Origin: a virus
Virus record (IMG/VR): IMGVR_UViG_3300025876_000006
Location: 1 to 64,000 of that record
DNA: 64,000 nt
Reading direction: 5' to 3' (one strand)
The notes under the pieces were generated by a model. That model was not told the origin of the DNA. It did no database searches and worked only from the letters and a program-made list of their open reading frames with translations. The translations under genes were made by a program, and so were the position numbers. How positions within the stretch are numbered: position 1 is the stretch's first letter; every line of letters begins with the position of its first letter. Of the stretch, positions 896-38,598 are shown one piece after another.

Positions 896-984
896 AACCC
901 TATATTCTACGGGGGTTCCAGAACAAAATGTGCATTTTGTGAATTATTTTATTTACAAATGCGCTATTTTATGGTATAATATAT
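896..984 (+). repeat. 89-bp promoter/operator-like cassette, copy 1 of 3
   Basis: Aligns without indels to 26638-26726 and 30715-30803. Order of elements: AACCCTATATTCTACGGGGGTT, inverted repeat ACAAAATG-TG-CATTTTGT (923-940), A/T tract, TTTACA, 17-nt spacer, TGGTATAAT. Confidence 0.9.
952..980 (+). promoter_or_regulatory. sigma70-type promoter TTTACA-17-TATAAT with TGn extended -10
   Basis: TTTACA at 952-957, TATAAT at 975-980, preceded by TGG. Confidence 0.75.
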
Positions 985-2734: not shown

Positions 2735-3163
2735 ATGAATCATATAGAAATAAATGGATCATCAAAAGATCGCAGAGAAATTGCTCAAAAGACGGTGGAT
2801 TGGTTTTTAAAGAAATATTTACCTCGTTATAAAACGTTAGATATTACTGTTGATATTATTGATTGCTATAAAACATCAAAAGCTTATGGCTATTGTGTAG
2901 CGATGGATGACAAACATCGGGAATTTAATATTGAGGTTGATAAAAGATTGCGTTTGTTTGATTTTGTGACTTCTCTTTGTCATGAATTGGTACATCTTAA
3001 ACAATACGCTAAATTTGAAATTAAAGATGTTTCTTTAAATAAAATTAAATGGAAAAAAACCATATTTAAAGATACAGTTAAATATGATGATATGCCTTGG
3101 GAAAAAGAAGCATATAAACTCGAAACCCAATTAGCCATTCAATGCTTTGAAGATTGTTTATAA
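2735..3163 (+). CDS. putative Zn-metallopeptidase-like protein (HExxH)
   Basis: HELVH motif in SLCHELVHLKQY. Family not identified. Confidence 0.5.
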   Translation: MNHIEINGSSKDRREIAQKTVDWFLKKYLPRYKTLDITVDIIDCYKTSKAYGYCVAMDDKHREFNIEVDKRLRLFDFVTSLCHELVHLKQYAKFEIKDVSLNKIKWKKTIFKDTVKYDDMPWEKEAYKLETQLAIQCFEDCL

Positions 3164-3243: not shown

Positions 3244-3582
3244 ATGAGCATATTAGAAAATCAAAGAAGTCCTGTTTTATCAAATGGGGAACGTTCTGCA
3301 AGGCAAGTTAAACGCGCCACTTCGCAGATGGCGTATCAATTAATTAGATCTTGGCATCACGGTTGGGACCTCGTTTGGTCTGCTGAAGATCCAGCGGCAG
3401 TTTTAGCCGAGATTGGAACTGACGCCGCCGAAATTTTTGAACTCAATGAAGAGCTGATTACATTTTTTGGTACCGCATTAGCCGGTCGTCGTCAAGAAGA
3501 CCTTGATGAGATTATGGCTAAAGTTGCATTAAAGCCGGCTACAGAAACCGCCGAAGATGGTTCTGTAACTATCGTAGAATAA
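3244..3582 (+). CDS. hypothetical protein (late-promoter driven, G+C-richer)
   Basis: ORF downstream of the tandem late motifs. Followed by hairpin GATAATGGG/CCCATTATC (3592-3625). Confidence 0.6.
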   Translation: MSILENQRSPVLSNGERSARQVKRATSQMAYQLIRSWHHGWDLVWSAEDPAAVLAEIGTDAAEIFELNEELITFFGTALAGRRQEDLDEIMAKVALKPATETAEDGSVTIVE

Positions 3583-4510: not shown

Positions 4511-6322
4511 ATGGCAAATGTAACCGTAACCACAGACATAGACAACCTTTTAAAGAGTGCTGACAATGCAGCAGCAAGGACAAACCTAGGAATTATTGAC
4601 CCGACTCTCGAATCAGTCACAACAAACGGAGCAACCACGCTAAACGATATTACTGTTGGCAAAATTGCCACAGCGCATCCAACTAATCCAGCAAACACCA
4701 ATATCGCCTCTGGTAGTAGCAGTGCGTCTATTGGAGGCACAGGTAACGTAGCAGCGGGAAATAGATCTGGAACTTTTGGGGGTAGAATAAACCAAGCAAA
4801 TGGAGTCGAATCTTCAGCCTTTGGAGGGACAAATCAAATTGTCCGAGGAAACGAGTCAGAAGGATTTGGAGGAACAAATATTACCCTAAACACAAAGTTC
4901 ACTAACACAGTAGGGGGAGCTAATCATGTGGTAGGTCTTGCATCCTCACTTGCTACTGACTCAGTAGCAAAGCACAGCCTTACATTAGGTGGGGAATCCT
5001 CAATAATTGAAAACGCAACCCATTCAGCTATTGTGGGGGGACAGTCAAATACAATTCAGACAGGGCATGATCGCTCTGTGATTTTAGGAGGCACGGGCAT
5101 CACAACCGATGCAGCGGATACGGCATACGTTTCCAAATTAAATATCAAGACAGAATTCAAATTGCCAACAGGAGCAACCGATGATTACGTCCTCACATCA
5201 GATGCAACTGGTGTAGGCACATGGCAATCAAAAACGAAAATTCAAGGTGTACAAACAACATCGGGCGTTCTTTCTTTTGACTATACAGCGGGAGAGATCG
5301 TAAAGACGATATTGACTGAAAGCGTAACTTCTATTGCAATCACAAATGCAGCAGAGGGAGATTCGGGGATGATAATTTTTTCGACTGACGGATCGGCTAC
5401 TTATTCCATGACAGTCGGCTCTCCTAACATAGTTATAAGTGGAGACCCTATTGACTTTGACAGCCTCACAGTCGGTGACGTCATAACTATGAAGTATTAT
5501 TACACTGGCACAGCTTTGTTACTTTATATTAGCGGTGACCAAGACCTTTCTGGACTGCAAGTGAAACCCGCTGAGGGAGCATTTGTTGATGGCGACAAAA
5601 CAGCACTTGACTCAGCTTTACAACCAGCAGACCCGACTCTTGATTCCGTTACAACTAACGGAGCGACCACGCTAAACAATATTAGTGTAGGCAGGATTGT
5701 AACTTTGCACCCTACTAATCCAGTCAACAACAACGTTGCCACGGGCAATCAAGCTTGCTCTATTGGAGGAGTTGTAAACGTAGTAAGCGGCAATCGCTCG
5801 GTAAATTATGGAGGGCGTGAAAATCAAGTCACTGGCAACGATAGCTCTGCGATTGGAGGCTTCGGTCAAATTGTGATTGGGCAAGAATCTGAAGGACTTG
5901 GGTCTACAGCCACAACTCTTAACACGAAATATACGAGTGCTGTTGGAACAATCAACAGCGTTGTAGGATTAGCCGGAGCGGGAACGGCATCAACAGCAAC
6001 AGCGCATTCATCGGTTCTTGGAGGCAATACAAACATAATCGAAAGCGCAACTGGAGCGGTCATAATTGGGGGAACTACAAACACAATTCAGACTGGGCAT
6101 GATCGCTCTGTAATATTAGGAGGCACGGGCACCGTAACCGATGCAGCGGATACAGCTTTTGCTCCAAGTCTGGATGTTCAGGGAACTGTATACATAAAAC
6201 AACGTGCAGCAGCAGACGTTAATAAGGCAGGAAAGTGCCAGTTATGGGTAGAAAATACCACCGGCGATTTATACCTAACACTACCTGACGGCACTAGTAA
6301 ACAAATCGCGTTTGTTGTATAA
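4511..6322 (+). CDS. tail-fibre/adhesin-like protein with internally duplicated ~190-aa module of Gly/Asn/Ser short repeats
   Basis: Module at about 4595-5150 recurs at about 5628-6185 (DPTL(E/D)SVTTNGATTLN...TGHDRSVILGGTG..TDAADTA). The GG.N....G..S repeats resemble YadA-head/fibre beta-structures. Confidence 0.65.
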   Translation: MANVTVTTDIDNLLKSADNAAARTNLGIIDPTLESVTTNGATTLNDITVGKIATAHPTNPANTNIASGSSSASIGGTGNVAAGNRSGTFGGRINQANGVESSAFGGTNQIVRGNESEGFGGTNITLNTKFTNTVGGANHVVGLASSLATDSVAKHSLTLGGESSIIENATHSAIVGGQSNTIQTGHDRSVILGGTGITTDAADTAYVSKLNIKTEFKLPTGATDDYVLTSDATGVGTWQSKTKIQGVQTTSGVLSFDYTAGEIVKTILTESVTSIAITNAAEGDSGMIIFSTDGSATYSMTVGSPNIVISGDPIDFDSLTVGDVITMKYYYTGTALLLYISGDQDLSGLQVKPAEGAFVDGDKTALDSALQPADPTLDSVTTNGATTLNNISVGRIVTLHPTNPVNNNVATGNQACSIGGVVNVVSGNRSVNYGGRENQVTGNDSSAIGGFGQIVIGQESEGLGSTATTLNTKYTSAVGTINSVVGLAGAGTASTATAHSSVLGGNTNIIESATGAVIIGGTTNTIQTGHDRSVILGGTGTVTDAADTAFAPSLDVQGTVYIKQRAAADVNKAGKCQLWVENTTGDLYLTLPDGTSKQIAFVV

Positions 6323-13398: not shown

Positions 13399-13427
13399 TT
13401 TACATCTATGTATAAATAATATATAAT
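13399..13427 (+). promoter_or_regulatory. sigma70-type promoter TTTACA-17-TATAAT, with an embedded TATAAATA (13411-13418)
   Basis: The -10 element ends 7 nt before the ligase ATG (13434), so the mRNA would be leaderless or nearly so. Confidence 0.6.
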
Positions 13428-13433
13428 AATACT

Positions 13434-14564
13434 ATGAAGTTAGATACATTATATTCCAGAGCAACAACTGGAGCTCTTCGCGAATGGACTGTTGAATATG
13501 AAGAAGGAAAATTCCGAACTCATTCTGGTCAAATTGGCGGTAAGATTACAACATCAAAATGGTATTCTGTAACTGCAATGAATGTTGGTAGATCAAATGA
13601 GAGAGGCTTACTTGAACAATCTAAATTCCAAGCAGAAGCTAAATGGAAAAAGAAAGTTGATGGCGGTTATACTCCAGATTTAAAATCTGTTGATGTTAGT
13701 ACTCTTTTTATTAAAGCAATGCTAGCAAAGAAGTGGGAAGATCGAAAAGATAAAATTGAATATCCAGTTTATACTCAACCAAAACTCGATGGTATGAGAG
13801 CTATTATTACAAAGGATGGAGCAAAGTCTCGTAATGGAAAACCATGGGTTACTATTCCACATATTTTAAAATCATTAGAACCAATATTTAAAGTTTACCC
13901 AAATCTTGTATTGGATGGCGAACTATATAATCATGAGTATAAAGAAGACTTTAATACAATCAGTTCATTAGCTAAAAAGACAAAACCAACTGAACAAGAT
14001 CTAAAAGATTCTGCTGATAAACTTCAGTTCTGGTGGTATGATATTATTCCAGTTGACGGATTTTGTGAAGAAGATACTATCTTTTCTGATAGGTTTAAAG
14101 AAATGGTAAATCTTAGTAATGAATATAAACTAAGTGGTATTATATTAGTTCCAACTTATTATCACGATTCTGAAGAAGACCTTAATAACAATTACAAAGA
14201 CTTTATTGAACTTGGATATGAAGGAGGCATGGTTCGCCTTAATTCAAAATATGATCGTAAGCGAAGTAACTCTCTTTTAAAGCGCAAAGACTTTACTGAT
14301 TCAGAATATAAGATTGTTTCTATTGAAGAAGGGAAAGGCAATAAAACAAATATGGCAGGATTTATGGTTCTTGAGAAAAGTGATGGAACTCAATTTCATT
14401 CAAACATTAAAGGTAATCATGAGTTTCTAAAAAACCTGCTAGTTGAAAAGGAAACTTATATTGGATCATATGCGACTTGTACTTATTTTAACTTAACTCC
14501 AGATGGAATTCCAAGATTTCCTTATGTCACTCGTCTGCGAGATGGCGAAGGTGTTGACAATTAA
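13434..14564 (+). CDS. ATP-dependent DNA ligase
   Basis: Adenylation motif I KLDGMR (QPKLDGMRAI), later EG.MV and LLKRK motifs. About 375 aa, T7/T3-ligase-like size. Confidence 0.85.
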   Translation: MKLDTLYSRATTGALREWTVEYEEGKFRTHSGQIGGKITTSKWYSVTAMNVGRSNERGLLEQSKFQAEAKWKKKVDGGYTPDLKSVDVSTLFIKAMLAKKWEDRKDKIEYPVYTQPKLDGMRAIITKDGAKSRNGKPWVTIPHILKSLEPIFKVYPNLVLDGELYNHEYKEDFNTISSLAKKTKPTEQDLKDSADKLQFWWYDIIPVDGFCEEDTIFSDRFKEMVNLSNEYKLSGIILVPTYYHDSEEDLNNNYKDFIELGYEGGMVRLNSKYDRKRSNSLLKRKDFTDSEYKIVSIEEGKGNKTNMAGFMVLEKSDGTQFHSNIKGNHEFLKNLLVEKETYIGSYATCTYFNLTPDGIPRFPYVTRLRDGEGVDN

Positions 14565-19214: not shown

Positions 19215-19243
19215 TTTACTTTATACCAAATTTGTGGTATAAT
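19215..19243 (+). promoter_or_regulatory. sigma70-type promoter TTTACT-17-TATAAT with TGG extended -10
   Basis: The -10 element ends 8 nt before the ATG at 19251. Confidence 0.55.
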
Positions 19244-19250
19244 AAATCTA

Positions 19251-19850
19251 ATGAAAATAATTGGTATCTCAGGTAACGCTACTGTTGGTAAAGATTCTTT
19301 TTGTAACGCTCTAATAGAACTTCTAAAAGAGCGCAACATTAAAGCAAAACGCTTCGCTTTTGCTGATGAATTAAAATATGAAACCGACGAGTTTCTTAAA
19401 TCATCTCTAGGCATTAGTGCCTTTACAACTGATAAAGAAGAAAAGAAATTAATTCGCCCATTCTTAGTTTGGTGGGGAACTGACTTTAGAAGAGTCATCG
19501 ACGATTCGCATTGGATTAATAAAGTTAGCGATAAGTTATCAAACGAAGATATTGTTTATATTATTACTGATGTAAGATATCAAAATGAGTTTGAATGGTT
19601 AAAGAATAATGATGGTTTATCGTTATTTTTGGATCGTGCTATTAGCGGAGTTGGCTTTGATGGGCTGCCTAATATTGTTCAGCCTTGCAATGATTATGAA
19701 AGGGAAAACAACAAGTGGTTAAAAGCAGAAGCCGATATTAATACAACTTGGCAAACTATTAAAGATCCTGCATATAGAGAAAGGTTTATTTTAAGAAACG
19801 TATTTCCTGAAATATTATCATATATAGAAGGAGAAGAATCTGATGCTTAA
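19251..19850 (+). CDS. deoxynucleoside monophosphate kinase (T4 gp1-like)
   Basis: P-loop GISGNATVGKDS. WWGTDFRRVIDDSHWINKV and YIITDVRYQNE parallel T4 gp1 ALGTD..R....WV and YIVPDTRQDHE. Confidence 0.6.
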   Translation: MKIIGISGNATVGKDSFCNALIELLKERNIKAKRFAFADELKYETDEFLKSSLGISAFTTDKEEKKLIRPFLVWWGTDFRRVIDDSHWINKVSDKLSNEDIVYIITDVRYQNEFEWLKNNDGLSLFLDRAISGVGFDGLPNIVQPCNDYERENNKWLKAEADINTTWQTIKDPAYRERFILRNVFPEILSYIEGEESDA

Positions 19851-20019: not shown

Positions 20020-20048
20020 TTTACAAATAGCCTTTTTTGTGATAGAAT
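20020..20048 (+). promoter_or_regulatory. sigma70-type promoter TTTACA-17-TAGAAT with TGn
   Basis: TTTACA at 20020-20025, TGATAGAAT ending at 20048. Confidence 0.6.
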
Positions 20049-21898: not shown

Positions 21899-21927
21899 TT
21901 TACATTTCTTATTATACGTGATATAAT
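21899..21927 (+). promoter_or_regulatory. sigma70-type promoter TTTACA-17-TATAAT with TGn
   Basis: The -10 element ends 7 nt before the ATG at 21934 (leaderless candidate). Confidence 0.6.
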
Positions 21928-21933
21928 ATATAC

Positions 21934-22131
21934 ATGATAAAAAATTATAATGAAACACAACGTGATACCCTATTGGAAAAAGAATGTTTTAGACTTGCGG
22001 AAGAGCATGCATTACTATTAGATTTTATTCACTTGGCGGTAGCATCTAAAAAGACGAACGGAACATTTAGTAATTCGAGAGAAAGTCTGCATCAAAAAGC
22101 CAGAGTTGTATTGGACAAAATAAATCGTTAA
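21934..22131 (+). CDS. hypothetical protein
   Basis: ORF directly after the promoter. Confidence 0.55.
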   Translation: MIKNYNETQRDTLLEKECFRLAEEHALLLDFIHLAVASKKTNGTFSNSRESLHQKARVVLDKINR

Positions 22132-22891: not shown

Positions 22892-23333
22892 GAAATATCC
22901 TCGGCTTCTAAAGGATTACGGTGGTGATCCTAGAGTTACATGTTTAGCATGGGGAATGGAGTGCGGAGATGGTTGGTATGATGTTATTGATGAAGCATTA
23001 CATATGATTAATCAGGTGTGTATTAAATTTGGTTATGAGGATATTGTTGTCGCTCAAATTAAAGAGAAGTTCGGTCAATTGAGAATCTATATGACCTATG
23101 GCGAATGCGACACTGTTGTTTTAAAAATCATTGAATGTATAACTGAGGCAGCATTACAAAAATCACGTAGTTGTTGTGAGCTTACAGGTAACTACGGTGT
23201 GTTGTGCAAGCGCGGATCGTGGGTTAAAACATTATCTTTCGAAGCCGTTCAAGATGCAAGCCACGAGTATGAGCCTGTTAACGAGTATGATAAGGACGCG
23301 TGGGAGCAAAGGAAGAAAAAATTACAAGTATGA
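22860..23333 (+). CDS. hypothetical protein (GMECGDGW motif)
   Basis: ORF only. G+C-richer than the early region. Confidence 0.55.
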   Translation: MKKELELKLVEKYPRLLKDYGGDPRVTCLAWGMECGDGWYDVIDEALHMINQVCIKFGYEDIVVAQIKEKFGQLRIYMTYGECDTVVLKIIECITEAALQKSRSCCELTGNYGVLCKRGSWVKTLSFEAVQDASHEYEPVNEYDKDAWEQRKKKLQV

Positions 23334-24159: not shown

Positions 24160-24399
24160 ATGAACGATAAACCAACAATAGCACTAGTAAGGAAAGCACC
24201 ACAAATACGACTAAGAAAAGAGACAGTGCGAGTAAATGTAACCCCAGCTGTAGATATAGTACAAACAACAAACAAGCATATAACACTATCGTCACTACTA
24301 CTAGCATCAGCCGTACTATTACTAACAGTAAACGTTATAATGGTTACAATGTGGGCAAAGGATGTTGAGGGTATGATAAACGTAGAACTTAAGCACTAA
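24160..24399 (+). CDS. small single-pass membrane protein
   Basis: TM segment LSSLLLASAVLLLTVNVIMVTMW. TAATG-coupled to the next gene. Confidence 0.55.
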   Translation: MNDKPTIALVRKAPQIRLRKETVRVNVTPAVDIVQTTNKHITLSSLLLASAVLLLTVNVIMVTMWAKDVEGMINVELKH

Positions 24400-25058
24400 T
24401 GAATAAACCAGGATACACTCTAATTGAGCTACTCATCGTCATTAGCATTATGGCAACGTTGATGACAATTGGATCGTTCGGCATTTCAAACTTCAGTAAG
24501 GCTAGAGGAGTGTCAACAGGAGTAACGTTAGCACAGCAATATACACAGGCCGCAAAAGAAACGGCACTGACAAGACCATCGCGATCACGGCTGCTTATTC
24601 ATGGTACTAATGATCCAACCAACACTCTTCATAGAGAGCGCTATCTAAGGTATATGGTTATACAAGTACTAAACGCAGGGCCAGATGAGCAATTGAACAC
24701 AGACGATGACTTTTGGGAAATAGCACAGAAGGGAAAGTATCTACCAAATAGAGCATGGTTCATTCCAAGCTTAAGCAATCAAACAGACTTAATTATACCA
24801 ACAGTCGATGCAAGGCTCCCAGGACAACCGGCGGGAGAAACGTCCACATGCTTCTATTACGAGTTCAATACACAAGGCCTATTAACAGATCCAAAGCCAG
24901 GAGTACTGGCACCGCGCTTTATTATTAGCGGAGGATCATTACCACCAGGAACCGTAGAACCAATAAGAAGCGATGATGATAGAAACGTTGGAGGCTTTGT
25001 AATATGGAAGAAAGGTACTACATCGCGCATTAAACATCCAGATCAAATAGGATTATGA
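24399..25058 (+). CDS. prepilin-type (type IV pilin / T2SS pseudopilin-like) protein
   Basis: Class III signal: MNKPG|YTLIELLIVISIMATLMTIG, with Gly at -1 and Glu at +5. ~195-aa globular domain. Confidence 0.75.
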   Translation: MNKPGYTLIELLIVISIMATLMTIGSFGISNFSKARGVSTGVTLAQQYTQAAKETALTRPSRSRLLIHGTNDPTNTLHRERYLRYMVIQVLNAGPDEQLNTDDDFWEIAQKGKYLPNRAWFIPSLSNQTDLIIPTVDARLPGQPAGETSTCFYYEFNTQGLLTDPKPGVLAPRFIISGGSLPPGTVEPIRSDDDRNVGGFVIWKKGTTSRIKHPDQIGL

Positions 25059-25630
25059 AAACGGCAGTATTAAATAAGACAAGAACATACCTGATTGGTC
25101 CAATGCAATATGCAGAAGGACGATATTGGAGAGAGGATTTTTCAGAATTTCTAAATGAAATTAACGTAACGATCTTTGATCCTTATAAGAAACCATTTAT
25201 TAATGCTCCTGAAGAAGATGAGAAAACTCATGAATGGATGGAGAGCTTAATGAAAAAGGGCGAGACACATCTTGATTATTGGAGTAAAGACACTGGGTAT
25301 GATACTGTTGCTAAACATATGAAGAAGGTTCGTAACTTTGATCTTTCAATGGTTGACGCTGCAGACTTTATCATTTGTTATCTTAACGCAGAGGTACCAA
25401 CGTTTGGAACTATGGAAGAACTTAGTTGGGCCGCTAGGTGTAAGAAGCCAACCTTTATTATTATGGAAGGCGGTAAAGAAAAGACTCCGTTCTGGGTAAT
25501 GGGTATGTTCCCTCACAAATACATTTACAATTCATTTGATGAAGTTAAGGAAATCATTACCAAGATTAATGATGGAACTGTTAAAGCTGACTCTGATCGA
25601 TGGAGATTATTTAAACAAGAATTAAGGTAA
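25055..25630 (+). CDS. nucleoside 2-deoxyribosyltransferase-like superfamily protein
   Basis: ATGA-coupled to the pilin-like gene. TYLIGPM parallels the YFAGPLF motif and TFGTMEELSWAA..KKP parallels D.G...E.G.A...G.P. Confidence 0.5.
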   Translation: MKTAVLNKTRTYLIGPMQYAEGRYWREDFSEFLNEINVTIFDPYKKPFINAPEEDEKTHEWMESLMKKGETHLDYWSKDTGYDTVAKHMKKVRNFDLSMVDAADFIICYLNAEVPTFGTMEELSWAARCKKPTFIIMEGGKEKTPFWVMGMFPHKYIYNSFDEVKEIITKINDGTVKADSDRWRLFKQELR

Positions 25631-26637: not shown

Positions 26638-26726
26638 AACCCTATATTCTACGGGGGTTGTAGAGCAAAATGCACATTTCGTGAATTATTTTATTTACAA
26701 ATGTGCATTTTTATGGTATAATATAA
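26638..26726 (+). repeat. 89-bp promoter/operator-like cassette, copy 2 of 3
   Basis: Collinear with 896-984 and 30715-30803. Confidence 0.9.
26694..26722 (+). promoter_or_regulatory. sigma70-type promoter TTTACA-17-TATAAT with TGG
   Basis: TTTACA at 26694-26699, TATAAT at 26717-26722. The spacer contains AAATGTGCATTTTT. Confidence 0.75.
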
Positions 26727-26809
26727 TCATAATAAGGGAACGGCAAAACAAACCTAAGAGTTCCTAAGATCCCCGTAAGGCGGGGATCACCACCACAACC
26801 AACTATATT

Positions 26810-27004
26810 ATGAAATCAGAATTCGCCACACCAGAGCCCGCAACTAAATGGGTAATTTATACTCTTGAAGATATCATTGAACTTGCTGAAGACGATGATG
26901 TAATTATAACGACTGAGCCCGAGGCATTAAATTACCTTAAAAATCGCAAAGACAATTATATTAAGGTTATTGGGCATGGTATATATGATATCCTTTTTGC
27001 ATAA
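26810..27004 (+). CDS. hypothetical small acidic protein
   Basis: First ORF after cassette 2. The leader contains hairpin GATCCCCG-TAAGG-CGGGGATC. Confidence 0.55.
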   Translation: MKSEFATPEPATKWVIYTLEDIIELAEDDDVIITTEPEALNYLKNRKDNYIKVIGHGIYDILFA

Positions 27005-29044: not shown

Positions 29045-29269
29045 ATGATAAAGATAGTAAAGTTTATAGATAAAAGCCTCGCGATTGGTAACAATGATGA
29101 TAAGTTTCAGGATTACATTAACAGCGTATTGCCTCTTCGTGGAGATTTTGCCGAGCAATTCCTTGTATGTAAGGAGGAAGTTGACGTGTATATTAAGAGC
29201 TTAATGAAAAATGAAGAAACCAAACTCCGCCGCGCTATCAATCAGTTTGCTGCCTCATTCAAAAAATAA
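29045..29269 (+). CDS. hypothetical protein
   Basis: ORF only. The antisense 28871-29158 ORF is judged a shadow. Confidence 0.5.
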   Translation: MIKIVKFIDKSLAIGNNDDKFQDYINSVLPLRGDFAEQFLVCKEEVDVYIKSLMKNEETKLRRAINQFAASFKK

Positions 29270-29289
29270 AACACAGCAAACAAAATATA

Positions 29290-29631
29290 ATGAAAACCGC
29301 TCTTGAAGCAGCTAAAGATTTAAAAGCCAAATATCTTGAGCAAATAGAAAACATTGATAAACTAATTTTGTCACTTGGCATTAAAGAACTTATTCCAGAT
29401 TTTTACGAAAACGATAAATACGAAAATATATCCATTGGCCTGCACGTTACAAAAAATCTAGAATTTTCAAAGAGGATTGCTTTTATGCCAAAGAAGGTTT
29501 TAGAAAAAAGAAGAAGCCAACATACGGTTATTATAAACAAACAAAAATTTCCAGCTAATAAAGTCCCAGATGTAATTTGGGAACATGCAATTGAAAACAC
29601 AAAAAAACAATACACAACAAATAAAATATAA
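29290..29631 (+). CDS. hypothetical protein
   Basis: ORF only. Confidence 0.5.
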   Translation: MKTALEAAKDLKAKYLEQIENIDKLILSLGIKELIPDFYENDKYENISIGLHVTKNLEFSKRIAFMPKKVLEKRRSQHTVIINKQKFPANKVPDVIWEHAIENTKKQYTTNKI

Positions 29632-29831
29632 TGAAAATGCAACTAAAGTTTAAAAATAAAAAAGCGTATGATGCCTGCCACACCTATGTCGATGGCCACA
29701 GCTTCTACTTTCGTAACCACGCTAAAGACAGAATCCTTCAATTCTGTTATGAGTATACACTACTAGATGTTGCAGAAGCATGTGATTCATTGTTAAGTTT
29801 AGAAGGTAAATACGAAATTATTACTGAATAA
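29631..29831 (+). CDS. hypothetical protein
   Basis: TAATG-coupled. Confidence 0.5.
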   Translation: MKMQLKFKNKKAYDACHTYVDGHSFYFRNHAKDRILQFCYEYTLLDVAEACDSLLSLEGKYEIITE

Positions 29832-30714: not shown

Positions 30715-30803
30715 AACCCTATATTCTACGGGGGTTGTAGAGTGAAATGTGCATTTTGTGAATTATTTTATTTACAAATGTGCCTTTTTATGGTATAATA
30801 TAA
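30715..30803 (+). repeat. 89-bp promoter/operator-like cassette, copy 3 of 3
   Basis: Collinear with the other two copies. Confidence 0.9.
30771..30799 (+). promoter_or_regulatory. sigma70-type promoter TTTACA-17-TATAAT with TGG
   Basis: TTTACA at 30771-30776, TATAAT at 30794-30799. Confidence 0.75.
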
Positions 30804-30850
30804 CTACAGAGAGGGACACCAACCAACTCAATCCACCACCACCTTATATC

Positions 30851-31510
30851 ATGAAAACACTAATTACGCTAACCACCATCGTTGGAGGAAGTATTTTTAC
30901 AACCTTTAACGCCGAAGATACCGCTTCACACGTGCCAAACGAAATTTTTACTCCAATTGAAATTTCCAAGCCGATCTTAGTAAAGCCAAAACGAATTTAT
31001 GCAGTTCTGGTTAAACCGACAATCAAACGATATACCATCGAGGATTTTGAAAGAGATGAAGCCGAACGTAATGAAAACGAAGCTTGGGATAAGATGGTTG
31101 AGGGCGTAAAGTTCTTTGAAGGATTTAAACCTAAAGCTTATAAATGTGCTGCTGGAGTAACTACCATTGGATATGGGCATACTGGTAAATATGCCAAAGT
31201 TAAGAAAATCGTATCTGAAATGGAAGCCGAGGAAATGCTAATGGATGAACTTATGGAAGCACGAAGCCATGTAGAACGTATTGTAAAGGTACCTTTAACG
31301 AAAGCTCAAATGGCAGCCCTCACTTCCTTCACATTTAATGCAGGGCAAGGCAATCTGCGAATGCTAGTAAATCAACCTGGACGCTTAAACTCAGGAAATT
31401 ATGAAAGCGTAGAAAAGATGCTACCTAAGTATAATAAAGGCGGAGGTAGAACTCTCAAAGGATTAACTAAAAGAAGAAACTGGGAAACTTCACTTTGGGT
31501 AAGTAACTAA
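30851..31510 (+). CDS. GH24 phage lysozyme (endolysin) with N-terminal signal-anchor
   Basis: Start moved to 30851 because 30749 lies in the promoter cassette. EGFKPKAYKCAAGVTTIGYGHTG (catalytic E...D/C...T pattern), FNAGQGNL, GL.KRR..E. N-terminal TLITLTTIVGGSIFTTF. Confidence 0.85.
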   Translation: MKTLITLTTIVGGSIFTTFNAEDTASHVPNEIFTPIEISKPILVKPKRIYAVLVKPTIKRYTIEDFERDEAERNENEAWDKMVEGVKFFEGFKPKAYKCAAGVTTIGYGHTGKYAKVKKIVSEMEAEEMLMDELMEARSHVERIVKVPLTKAQMAALTSFTFNAGQGNLRMLVNQPGRLNSGNYESVEKMLPKYNKGGGRTLKGLTKRRNWETSLWVSN

Positions 31511-36092: not shown

Positions 36093-36108
36093 TTTAAAAC
36101 TAATTACA

Positions 36109-36150
36109 ATATCGCCATCTGGTTTAATTACTAGATGGCGATATTTTTTA
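36109..36150. terminator. bidirectional terminator hairpin between convergent gp32 and tape-measure genes
   Basis: 12-bp stem ATATCGCCATCT/AGATGGCGATAT, 12-nt loop, followed by TTTTTA. Confidence 0.75.
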
Positions 36151-38598
36151 TAAAGACATAGCAGACCCAGCCAGAACATTATCAGTGGATTCGGCGATAG
36201 TGTTCTGCGTGGATTGTGAACTATTATTAGTTACGTTCCCTCCGTTATTATTAACAACATTAATAACTGGAGCTGCATTCATTGCGCCAGTTTCTGATAA
36301 CGCTTCTCCAACATTATCAACCTTTGAGGGCTTTTCCATTTGATCAGGGCTAAGCTGGTTTGATGTATTAGGTTCGTTTAATAATAAATTAAGTTGCTCT
36401 CTTTTTTGTTTTAATTCTAGCCCAGCCTCATTTGACTTTCGTTGAGCTTCATCTGATTGTTGTCCAAGAGTATCTACCTTTTCGTCATTAACAAAGAAAT
36501 CATCCATTTCATCTGTTTGCTGTTTAGTTAGTTCAACAGATTGTTTTTGGAATTTTTGTTTGTCAGCTTCTAATTTTGCTATTTCTTCAGCCAATCGTTT
36601 TGCTTCGGGATTACCGCTTTCTTCTGCCGCTTTCTTATCAGATGCTACCTTTTTTGATCCTCTAGCTGCAACGCTTTCAGCTGCAGATGGTTTTGAACCC
36701 CAAACAAATTCAAGTAAAGAATCAGGCATTACCTTAAGCATTAAGGTTTCCTTACTAAACGTATCATACTTTTTATTAGGATCAGGAACTACATTTTTAA
36801 GTACTTCTCTTTGTATATTTTCAAGAGCACCATCACCAGATATAGCGCCTGAAATTAAACCAACAGGTGACATAGCAAAGAATTTTTTAACGCCATCAAC
36901 AATGAAATCCCAGACGGTTTTTACTAAAGATGTAACCCCGTTCTTTAAAAATCCTTTTATAGATGATCCAACAGATTTTATTTCTTCTCCGATATTTGAA
37001 AAGAACGAACCAATCGCGTTAAAACTATTCATTATACTTTCTCCAATAGATACAAAGAACGAACTAATCGCGTTAAAACCATCCAGTATTTCTTTGATAA
37101 TAGGTTCAAAGAACAAGCCGATTTTTTCTAAACCACCCATTATACTATCTCCAATAGATACAAAGAATCCGCCAACTCTTTTCATGTTTTCTGAGAAGTC
37201 TGAAAAGAAATCTATGATGAGTTTGGCAGGCATAGCAATAGCGTCAATTATCACACCAATATATTTGTTAATATCAAAGTCATATAACATTTCCTTGAAA
37301 TTATCAAATCCTAATAAACCACCGAGCCAGCCAATACCGTCTATCACTAGATTAATAAGTCCGCCAAAGACACCTTCAATCGCACCCTTAATAAATCCAA
37401 TAAGTCCTCCGGCGATTTTTTGAATAATATTACCTTCAGTTTCGGTAAAACCTTTAAAGGCGCCCATGACTCCAAAAACAAGACCTTCAATAATCATTAT
37501 AACTTGGCCTATAATCGGAATACTTTTGGCTAGAGTTGCTCCAATTTTAATACCTATTTTAAAAAACTTAGAGATAGCACTGAAGAATTTTGAAATTTTT
37601 CCGCCTGACCCAAGCCCTTTAATGAAATTGAATACGGGTTTTATAAAGTCAAACGCTTTGCTGAAAGTAGAAGCAGCAGAGCGAAAAGCTTTTCCAATAG
37701 CGCTAAAGAAATTCTTGACTGGTTCGAAAATTTTAAGAATTGATTTTACAATTTTAAATGATTTTATTTTTCTAATCACTTCGCCAACAAAGCCAACAAT
37801 CACTCCACCTATTAAAGATAAAGAACCTAATATATTAGTAAGCCATCCGTTATCTTTAATAAATTCTTTAACCATCTTGCCTGAACTTTGTCCTTTTTTA
37901 GCGGCTTCGGCTTCGGATTCTTTTTTATTTAAAGCCAATTTCCTAGCCATCATTTTTTCAAAACTAAAACTGTCGCTCTCAGTCTTATTAGCTTTTTTAG
38001 TTAGTAAAGATATTGATTTTAGCTCTTCTGCATTTGCATTTAAAAGCCCGTTGCCTTCGGCTATCTTTTTTAGAACTTTAAGGCCTCTGTCCTGTGCAAC
38101 AGGATCTAGTAATTTGGGCGCATTAAATAAAGAAGCCCTATCAGTAAACATTTTAGGTAGCGGCGCAGGCTTAACTATAGTTTCTTTATCATCATTATTA
38201 ACTATAGTTTCTTTATCATTATTAACTATAGTTTCTTTAATTATTGAGGGTTGGTTAACAACCTTTGATAAATTATCTATAGACCCTTGGAATTCTTCAC
38301 TTTGTTCTTTAATAGCGGCTATAGAACTTTTAGATGATGCCGATAAATCCTTTTGTAAATCCTTGATAGCATCAACATTTTTTTGATTATCACTAGCAAT
38401 GAACTCAAGTAATTTATTACCACTACTTAATAATGTATTTGTTTCAATTTTATTGGCAACACTTTTCTTTAAAGTTGCTATACCAATACCCTTTAATTCA
38501 TTAAGCCCACTTATAAATTCTTTCTGTAAAGAAGCAATTATAGGGCCTATAATAGAATTATTATTAGTATTATTATTAGTATTACTTGGCGTTTCCAT
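36148..38598 (-). CDS. tail tape measure / length-determining hub protein (T4 gp29-like role)
   Basis: 816 aa. N-terminal coiled-coil region, central Gly/Ile/Phe-rich repeated membrane-like segments (FFVSIGDSIMGG / FFVSIGESIMNS), C-terminal coiled coil. Located next to baseplate hub genes. Confidence 0.6.
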   Translation of the reverse strand: METPSNTNNNTNNNSIIGPIIASLQKEFISGLNELKGIGIATLKKSVANKIETNTLLSSGNKLLEFIASDNQKNVDAIKDLQKDLSASSKSSIAAIKEQSEEFQGSIDNLSKVVNQPSIIKETIVNNDKETIVNNDDKETIVKPAPLPKMFTDRASLFNAPKLLDPVAQDRGLKVLKKIAEGNGLLNANAEELKSISLLTKKANKTESDSFSFEKMMARKLALNKKESEAEAAKKGQSSGKMVKEFIKDNGWLTNILGSLSLIGGVIVGFVGEVIRKIKSFKIVKSILKIFEPVKNFFSAIGKAFRSAASTFSKAFDFIKPVFNFIKGLGSGGKISKFFSAISKFFKIGIKIGATLAKSIPIIGQVIMIIEGLVFGVMGAFKGFTETEGNIIQKIAGGLIGFIKGAIEGVFGGLINLVIDGIGWLGGLLGFDNFKEMLYDFDINKYIGVIIDAIAMPAKLIIDFFSDFSENMKRVGGFFVSIGDSIMGGLEKIGLFFEPIIKEILDGFNAISSFFVSIGESIMNSFNAIGSFFSNIGEEIKSVGSSIKGFLKNGVTSLVKTVWDFIVDGVKKFFAMSPVGLISGAISGDGALENIQREVLKNVVPDPNKKYDTFSKETLMLKVMPDSLLEFVWGSKPSAAESVAARGSKKVASDKKAAEESGNPEAKRLAEEIAKLEADKQKFQKQSVELTKQQTDEMDDFFVNDEKVDTLGQQSDEAQRKSNEAGLELKQKREQLNLLLNEPNTSNQLSPDQMEKPSKVDNVGEALSETGAMNAAPVINVVNNNGGNVTNNSSQSTQNTIAESTDNVLAGSAMSL
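38171..38241 (-). repeat. imperfect 24-27-nt tandem repeat (about 3 units) inside the tape-measure gene
   Basis: ttaactatagtttctttatcat... repeated. Encodes KETIVNND repeats. Confidence 0.85.

Follow-up and report, generated by a model that had tools for sequence, protein, structure and literature searches.

A 64,000-nucleotide stretch of viral DNA (positions 1 to 64,000 of the IMG/VR record IMGVR_UViG_3300025876_000006, hereafter the window) carries three copies of a promoter-like repeat, at 896-984, 26638-26726 and 30715-30803. We show herein that the repeat is real and non-random, and that it belongs to a cassette of about 130 bp in which a 45-nt upstream module containing two dyads is followed by a promoter and a 5' leader. 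The explanation that we favour, with a probability of about one half, is that the repeat is a dispersed early-promoter cassette resembling the promoter early stem-loops (PeSLs) of T4-type phages, and that its upstream module serves as a structure or boundary rather than as a sequence-specific operator. The idea of a paired operator for a dedicated regulator, put forward in the initial annotation of this DNA, is weakened by the findings described below.

The repeat and its promoter

The three copies align without a gap, as the initial annotation had stated, and a repeat finder groups them as one family of 102 nt with 83-88% identity. The 22-mer AACCCTATATTCTACGGGGGTT occurs three times in the window, still three times when up to three mismatches are allowed, and not at all in 100 shuffles. 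The length of 89 bp that had been proposed is too short, as similarity continues 3' of 984 through the leader, with 84% identity between copies 1 and 3 across 134 nt, and 91-95% identity across 129 nt between copy 3 and a fourth copy that lies outside the window. The cassette reaches the start codon through a G-poor, C/A-rich leader, and at its other end the 5' edge of similarity is sharp, falling on the same base in every copy. The conserved block does exceed a minimal promoter, as had been claimed. All copies face the same direction and stand at the heads of arrays of small open reading frames (ORFs) or of a T4-type lysozyme gene.

Copy 1, on the + strand like the others, begins with an upstream dyad, H1 (AACCC-TATATTCTAC-GGGGGTT, 896-917), with arms of 5-6 bp, a loop of 10-12 nt and six pairs in the RNA fold; by pattern matching, H1 lies at 26638-26659 in copy 2 and at 30715-30736 in copy 3. 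A variable linker (918-922) comes next, and its full haplotype, CCAGAAC (918-924), overlaps the first bases of palindrome 1; the linker of copies 2 and 3 reads GTAGAG[CT]. Palindrome 1, ACAAAATG-TG-CATTTTGT, occupies 923-940 with the perfect 8+8 arms previously described, is centred at about -55.5 from the predicted start site, and is imperfect in copies 2 (26665-26682) and 3 (30742-30759). It is followed by the A/T tract GAATTATTTTA (941-951), which has the position of a proximal UP element and is invariant in nine of nine variants. The core promoter (952-980) consists of a -35 hexamer TTTACA (952-957), a 17-nt spacer, TG at 972-973 and a -10 hexamer TATAAT (975-980); the corresponding hexamers lie at 26694-26699 and 26717-26722 in copy 2, and at 30771-30776 and 30794-30799 in copy 3. 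A/T tract, TTTACA and spacer were all found where the initial annotation had placed them. The second AAATG-type motif that it had seen within the spacer, here palindrome 2 (an AAATG..TTTT motif at 957-969 in copy 1), is likewise present, but the exact form AAATGTGCATTT is confined to copy 2 (26699-26710), the only one of the three window copies in which this palindrome is clean. The centres of palindromes 1 and 2 are 31 bp apart.

The core, TTTACA-17-TGgTATAAT, agrees with the sigma-70 consensus at 11 of 12 positions and has the TG in addition. The pattern TTTACA-N16-18-TATAAT has nine exact matches in the window, all nine on the + strand, against 0.34 expected; a scan of the window for a Bacteroidetes-type promoter motif gave no enrichment. 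It is thus well supported, from the sequence, that the core is a near-consensus sigma-70-type promoter of very strong predicted activity, which together with a selected leader heads four same-strand units. In the window, each copy does open a transcription unit as proposed, copies 1 and 2 leading into arrays of small ORFs that begin at 1025 and 26810, and copy 3 into the gene for a Phage_lysozyme protein, which begins at 30851.

The predicted leader of copy 1 (987-1024, with a start inferred near 987) is G-poor and C/A-rich and leads to an ATG at 1025; that of copy 2 is 81 nt long (26729-26809) and leads to a start codon at 26810; and that of copy 3, ACTACAGAGAGGGACACCAACCAACTCAATCCACCACCACC... 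(30806-30850), is near-identical to the leader of the fourth copy. A Shine-Dalgarno motif was sought in the cassette leaders and none was seen, while a start codon does follow. Across the window, a Shine-Dalgarno-like motif precedes 3 of 76 gene starts. In several more distant relatives, AAGGAG-type motifs are visible just 5' of start codons. The leader of copy 2 alone holds an inserted, perfect 8-bp G/C-rich hairpin, GATCCCCG-TAAGG-CGGGGATC (26768-26788), which ends 21 nt ahead of the start codon and has no T run after it; this hairpin could be a transcript stabiliser or an attenuator.

A search of this genome and its relatives, which the initial annotation had suggested, yielded an extra copy outside the window, and only four locus types in IMG/VR and the metagenome contigs of JGI. 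The invariant 23-mer GTGAATTATTTTATTTACAAATG was found at 16 IMG/VR loci, at 12 JGI metagenome-contig loci and in a 4.4-kb contig (L137); two promoter-core patterns returned the identical 16 IMG/VR loci, and exact hairpin patterns of 22 and 18 nt matched only copy 1 of one relative. The fourth copy (c4) lies downstream of nrdA, nrdB and a 65-aa ORF, and upstream of a 74-aa ORF and more small ORFs. One contig carries copies 1 and 4 in the same orientation, and likewise copies 2 and 3 occur together; all four locus types are directly oriented, and lie ahead of small ORFs without a Pfam match or of the lysozyme gene. Copies 2 and 3 are separated by 4.1 kb here, as against at least 8.2 kb in a 94% relative. 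Among 80 distant loci recovered via gp32 (60-73% identity), none contains a cassette homologue, and the cassette is therefore specific to this phage group. Those 80 loci have many TTTACA-N17-TATAAT promoters, often with spacer dyads such as CCAC..GTGG.

In the mechanism that we propose, a sigma-70-type RNA polymerase of the host would bind the A/T tract, TTTACA, the 17-nt spacer and the extended -10 TGgTATAAT, and would start transcription about 7 nt past the -10, near 987, 26729 and 30806. The G-poor, C/A-rich leader, with no Shine-Dalgarno motif, would then drive translation of the first ORF. The four copies would form a strong, presumably early class, each opening a same-strand unit of small ORFs or lysozyme; because each unit opens with the same promoter, the four should fire together. 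More tentatively, the upstream 45 nt (H1, linker and palindrome 1) would be the 'stem-loop half', two dyads under a constraint on length, with a T-rich tract behind them. This module would most likely act in cis as a nucleic-acid structure, marking a unit boundary and damping read-through from the upstream unit, and it would also lengthen the homology common to the copies.

Constraint, structure and function of the upstream module

Orthologous cassettes were compared in five cases, with flanks that are 92-100% identical from one lineage to the other. The A/T tract and promoter show one change in 230 nt and the leader one in 200 nt, as compared with 24 changes in 225 nt for the upstream 45 nt, which is the fastest-changing segment; most of these changes fall in copies 3 and 4. 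One orthologue pair has an identical 554-nt upstream flank and a module that differs at 6 of 45 positions. Copies 1 and 2, on the other hand, are 100% identical between lineages although their flanks differ by 1-8%. The hairpin element described as invariant is so inside this genome, in three of three copies, but not beyond it, as close relatives carry AAACCCTTATTCTACGGGGGTT, AACCCCTTATTCTACGGGGGTT and AAACCCTTATTCTAAGGGAGTT.

These rates raise the possibility that the upstream 45 nt have no function of their own, having spread by duplication along with gene blocks while selection acts on the promoter and leader only; gene conversion would keep them alike and palindrome-templated mutation would scramble them locally. 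The pattern of change fits such a history in several respects. Each multi-base replacement gives rise to a new perfect dyad adjoining an arm that has not changed, and the central dinucleotide of palindrome 1 alternates between TG and CA. Five versions of this palindrome were observed, AAAATGTGCATTTT, AAAATGCACATTT[TC], GAAATGTGCATTTT, ATATCACATATGTG and ATTGTGCACATTTC, of which the fourth includes the perfect palindrome TCACATATGTGA and the fifth TGTGCACA. Variants are also common to different loci: the linker CCAGAAC occurs in copy 1 and in copy 4a, and GTAGAG in copies 2, 3 and 4b, while in L137, a copy-4 variant, the right half of palindrome 1 has the copy-2 form. Moreover, the module gives no thermodynamic or covariation signal (see below). 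We infer that the upstream mutations are the product of palindrome-templated mutation, of exchange between copies, or of both. Palindrome-templated (template-switch) mutation was first described in T4 rII.

Nonetheless, that the module is a mere passenger seems quite unlikely. Not a single indel occurs in nine variants from four loci, the columns TATTCTA, GGG, GTT and AGA in and around H1 are invariant across all nine, and the 5' edge is shared to the base, all of which argue that the module is not junk. The complete identity of copies 1 and 2 between lineages with diverged flanks speaks to the same effect, and between paralogues it is the leaders that have diverged, far more than the module has.

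The alternative laid out in the initial annotation was that the two related palindromes form a paired operator. This was not borne out. Palindrome 1 is conserved less than any other segment of the cassette, with five versions in near-identical genomes, and palindrome 2 is nearly constant, so the two show no co-variation. A perfect palindrome 2 is present in just one of the three copies in the window, and the left half of palindrome 2 (TTTACAAATG/TTTACAAAT(G)) is a generic spacer feature that recurs at the promoters at 20020 and 25638 and in several distant relatives. The resemblance of the two palindromes to each other is modest, its score being reached by 25, 216 and 863 of 2000 shuffles in the three copies, respectively. 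AAATGNNCATTT has no other instance above chance. Neither Pfam nor PHROG detected a DNA-binding domain in the cassette-adjacent and other scanned window genes, which is weak negative evidence because many of the small ORFs have no detectable family. The view that palindrome 1 arose by tandem duplication of the core promoter was rejected, the similarity being confined to a palindrome segment of 12-17 nt and weakly significant.

A broader form of this idea deserves separate consideration, in which a phage or host factor recognises some part of the upstream module and switches the four units together. Its site could be H1, whose TATTCTA/GGG/GTT/AGA core does not vary, or either of the two palindromes, or a combination of these. 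The module has a fixed length in nine of nine variants, its core in and around H1 stays invariant while the arms vary, and among paralogues it outlasts the leaders. The palindromes are spaced by about three helical turns, one of them overlapping the spacer. Of the early-type promoters in the window, about 11 in number, just three have the module; as previously noted, eight other TTTACA promoters (9903, 13399, 19215, 20020, 21899, 25638, 32838 and 35113) lack the upstream element. The lysozyme gene behind one copy also suggests some control. Against this stand the five versions of palindrome 1 beside an unchanged palindrome 2, the imperfect palindrome 2 in two of three window copies, the missing further instances of the motif, the want of a DNA-binding domain in the scanned genes, and the absence of a homologous element from the distant relatives. 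We consider a regulated class of this kind somewhat unlikely. Stated for the site itself, namely that the upstream module, with or without the spacer palindrome, is the site of a phage-encoded or host factor that co-switches a four-unit regulon, the proposal is in our judgement unlikely. The parts of the genome that were surveyed showed no middle-mode system of the MotA/AsiA type. Were the proposal true, a new mode of temporal control would act on some early promoters that are otherwise constitutive, and the rapid, dyad-preserving turnover of palindrome 1 would represent changing specificity or escape. Of the co-switching originally claimed, then, what stands is a single class of strong sigma-70-type promoters that probably fire together, and what lacks support is the paired operator of a dedicated regulator.

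Several observations weigh against the PeSL-like reading that we favour, and in particular against a structural role of the module. RNA fold energies of the cassettes are not better than those of shuffles (z from -0.4 to -2.2), as compared with a z of -4.6 for a genuine terminator abutting a promoter in a distant relative, though every variant does admit stems of 5-7 bp. Pair counts on three candidate helices gave 87% pairing over nine variants, with no pair changed on both sides and no excess over shuffles. A terminator scan made no call at the cassettes; H1 has no T run after it, and palindrome 1, which does precede a T-rich tract, has a stem of A/U pairs only. The 'loop' of H1, TATTCTA, is invariant while the arms vary, which looks more like a protein site than like a simple hairpin. 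Among the few lineages compared, the indel or replacement breakpoints of relatives lie at 23329, 24403/25068 and 29032/29311, and none at a cassette. A chimeric copy-2/copy-3 deletion junction had no match in the metagenome contigs; run on the window as a positive control, the junction pattern worked. Finally, it would be odd for a lysozyme gene to stand behind a constitutive early promoter.

The structural tests bear as well on a reading of the cassette as a small RNA or a canonical intrinsic terminator instead of a promoter-associated element. A weak Rfam match to the Qrr small RNA (RF00378) at 895-984 and the T-rich tract after palindrome 1 might be taken in its favour. The Qrr match scores 19.3 bits, far under the gathering score of 50, with E = 0.68, and is given by copy 1 only, with none for copies 2 and 3, and we rejected it as a chance match; in the Rfam scan tRNAs alone pass the thresholds. 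There is no promoter upstream of the element and no terminator at its end, and the scan that is silent at the cassettes does call canonical terminators elsewhere in the window, at 147-170 and 36108-36145. This reading is therefore highly improbable. Two further candidates were dropped: an H-type pseudoknot made of H1 and a TTCTAC/GTAGAG pairing, because no loop is left to span stem 1, and a divergent minus-strand promoter via TAGAAT in H1, which on inspection lacks a usable -35 or TGn and has no gene on the minus strand close to it.

With respect to recombination, divergence shifts near copy 3, yet similar switches occur all along the genome, and so no specific association of switches with the cassettes can be claimed. 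A 94% relative has, in place of the segment 29032-29311 (with ORF 29045-29269), at least 4.2 kb of DNA that is unrelated to it. As the breakpoints coincide with the starts of genes, exchange may take place at short conserved leader sequences and not at the cassette. Two gene-start repeats of 36 nt, at 29261-29296 and 29602-29637, are 89% identical and flank ORF 29290-29631. Region 24404-25067, which corresponds to ORF 24399-25058 (219 aa, with a weak N_methyl match), is precisely missing in the 94% lineage (L050 and L046), and in a 99.8% relative (L036) different genes replace everything upstream of 23329.

The phage genome and its other promoters

Judged by its gene content, the window is part of an uncultured marine T4-like myovirus of about 170 kb. 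This assignment follows from T4-type genes, large marine contigs and relatives of gp32. The window and its contigs encode gp32, a gp33-like late co-activator (Trans_coact), gp13, the neck protein gp14, gp53 and T4_baseplate, along with a T4-type Phage_lysozyme, a DNA ligase and three tRNAs. Exact-protein look-ups place window proteins in contigs of up to 170-171 kb from many marine samples, and for the first protein looked up, the index of the assembly collection gives 215 blocks. Cyanomyophages and the Methylophilales phage Melnitz have gp32 proteins that share 50-54% identity with that of the present phage. Among 50,697 phage records, no close cultured relative was found by DNA or tail protein, and gp32 alone gave distant matches. 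The G+C content of the window is 34%. The copy-4 locus L137 (CALKOP010000137.1, 4390 bp) was binned in a metagenome-assembled genome of an 'uncultured Flavobacteriales', which may be an artefact of binning or else gives a weak hint at the host; such a host agrees with the scarcity of Shine-Dalgarno sites and disagrees with the E. coli-type promoters.

Other promoters in the window show features of their own. Three of sigma-70 type (13399-13434, 19215-19251 and 21899-21934) have an ATG only 6-7 nt past the -10, so that the mRNAs of the DNA ligase, a 199-aa ORF and a 65-aa ORF are probably leaderless. The sequence TATAAATA is found directly ahead of structural genes, in the manner of T4 late promoters. 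It also occurs, at 13411-13418, within the TTTACA-17-TATAAT spacer of the early-type DNA ligase promoter (13399-13427), which may be a dual early/late promoter. No late-type promoter was seen directly upstream of the lysozyme gene behind copy 3 (30851-31510). The hydrophobic N-terminal segment of that lysozyme, MKTLITLTTIVGGSIF..., suggests a signal-anchored or exported enzyme.

In the distant relatives L114 (~3080-3145) and L119 (~3480-3545), operator-like TGTTACA/TGTAACA repeats stand just upstream of early-type promoters, and in L124 (1125-1155) a strong terminator, AAAATGCACTA/TAGTGCATTTT with a T run, is fused to the -35; the arms of the latter resemble palindrome 1 of the cassette. Repeats of other kinds are also present in the window. 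A 15-nt unit, AAAAAGAAATCTACT, is repeated four times in tandem at 1-75, and the relatives L027 and L028, which align only from position 31, may differ at these repeats. The 603-aa ORF at 4511-6322 contains an internal duplication (4598-5124 versus 5630-6156, 1032-nt spacing, 78-80% identity), and its counterpart in L025 is split into products of 92 and 507 aa. Three repeats with a period of 54 nt lie at 36979-37167, within a tape-measure-like gene on the minus strand (36148-38598).

Comparison with known systems

Early promoters of T4 are of the UP/-35/TGn/-10 type with extra consensus regions (Hinton 2010, PMC2988021). The cassette resembles them in its near-consensus TTTACA -35, 17-nt spacer, TGn extended -10 and A/T-rich upstream tract, as well as in having a consensus beyond the core and a place at the heads of early small-ORF arrays, and a promoter of this sort is ordinary for a T4-like phage. 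It differs in that its conserved block reaches to about -90 with G/C-clamped dyads and is present at only a subset of the early-type promoters. The paired operators of the lambda PR/PL type offer another parallel, with one dyad over the spacer, a related one upstream, and centres about three helical turns apart. The upstream site of the cassette, however, varies among orthologues without matching changes in the spacer site, and among the scanned window genes neither a cognate regulator nor an evident autoregulated regulator gene was found.

PeSLs have been described in the T4-type phages RB49/phi1, T4/PST and KVP40/nt-1 (Arbiol et al. 2010, PMC2839356; Comeau et al. 2014, PMC4122927). They combine an A/T-rich region, a strong sigma-70 promoter and a stem-loop, often of G/C tracts, with conservation over about 100 bp; they occur in variable regions, where they precede ORFs of no known function, and roles in termination and in recombination between copies have been proposed for them (PMC2839356, PMC4122927). 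The promoter of the T4/PST elements is TTTACW-N17-TAYWAT (PMC2839356, PMC4122927). The only cyanophage study that we found to mention PeSLs reports no such density (PMC4503421).

The present cassette departs from the published elements in several ways. It has four copies only, which are 83-95% identical without indels and far more alike than published PeSLs. Its dyads are weak, and the terminator scan calls none of them; its leader lacks a Shine-Dalgarno site, and it has a second A/T palindrome, which makes a two-dyad upstream module, together with the spacer palindrome. Its dyad half is hypervariable and its promoter half frozen, and neither a breakpoint at a cassette nor a deletion junction was observed. 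Since support for a stable stem-loop, a Shine-Dalgarno site and a breakpoint abutting the element are all lacking, membership in the PeSL class is not established, though the cassette would work like one. The points of likeness are several. Both are found in T4-like myoviruses and consist of a dyad with G/C tracts, an A/T-rich region, a strong sigma-70-type promoter and a leader to the start codon; similarity extends over about 100 bp; the copies lie scattered through variable regions, all in direct orientation and ahead of small ORFs with no known function; and there are signs of sequence exchange between copies, which in the present cassette recurrent templated mutation could also explain.

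What is noteworthy in the cassette is the coexistence of a frozen promoter and leader with a fast-changing dyad module of fixed length, and a possible dedicated regulator. It may serve as a compact natural test case for the role of the 'stem-loop' half, for the evolution of regulatory DNA under palindrome-templated mutation and inter-copy exchange, and for translation of the first early gene in a phage with almost no Shine-Dalgarno sites, and it would provide a ready-made strong promoter and leader, as predicted, for a marine host. If the PeSL-like reading is correct, promoter/stem-loop cassettes extend beyond the enterobacterial and vibrio T4-type phages into an abundant, uncultured marine lineage of T4-like phages.

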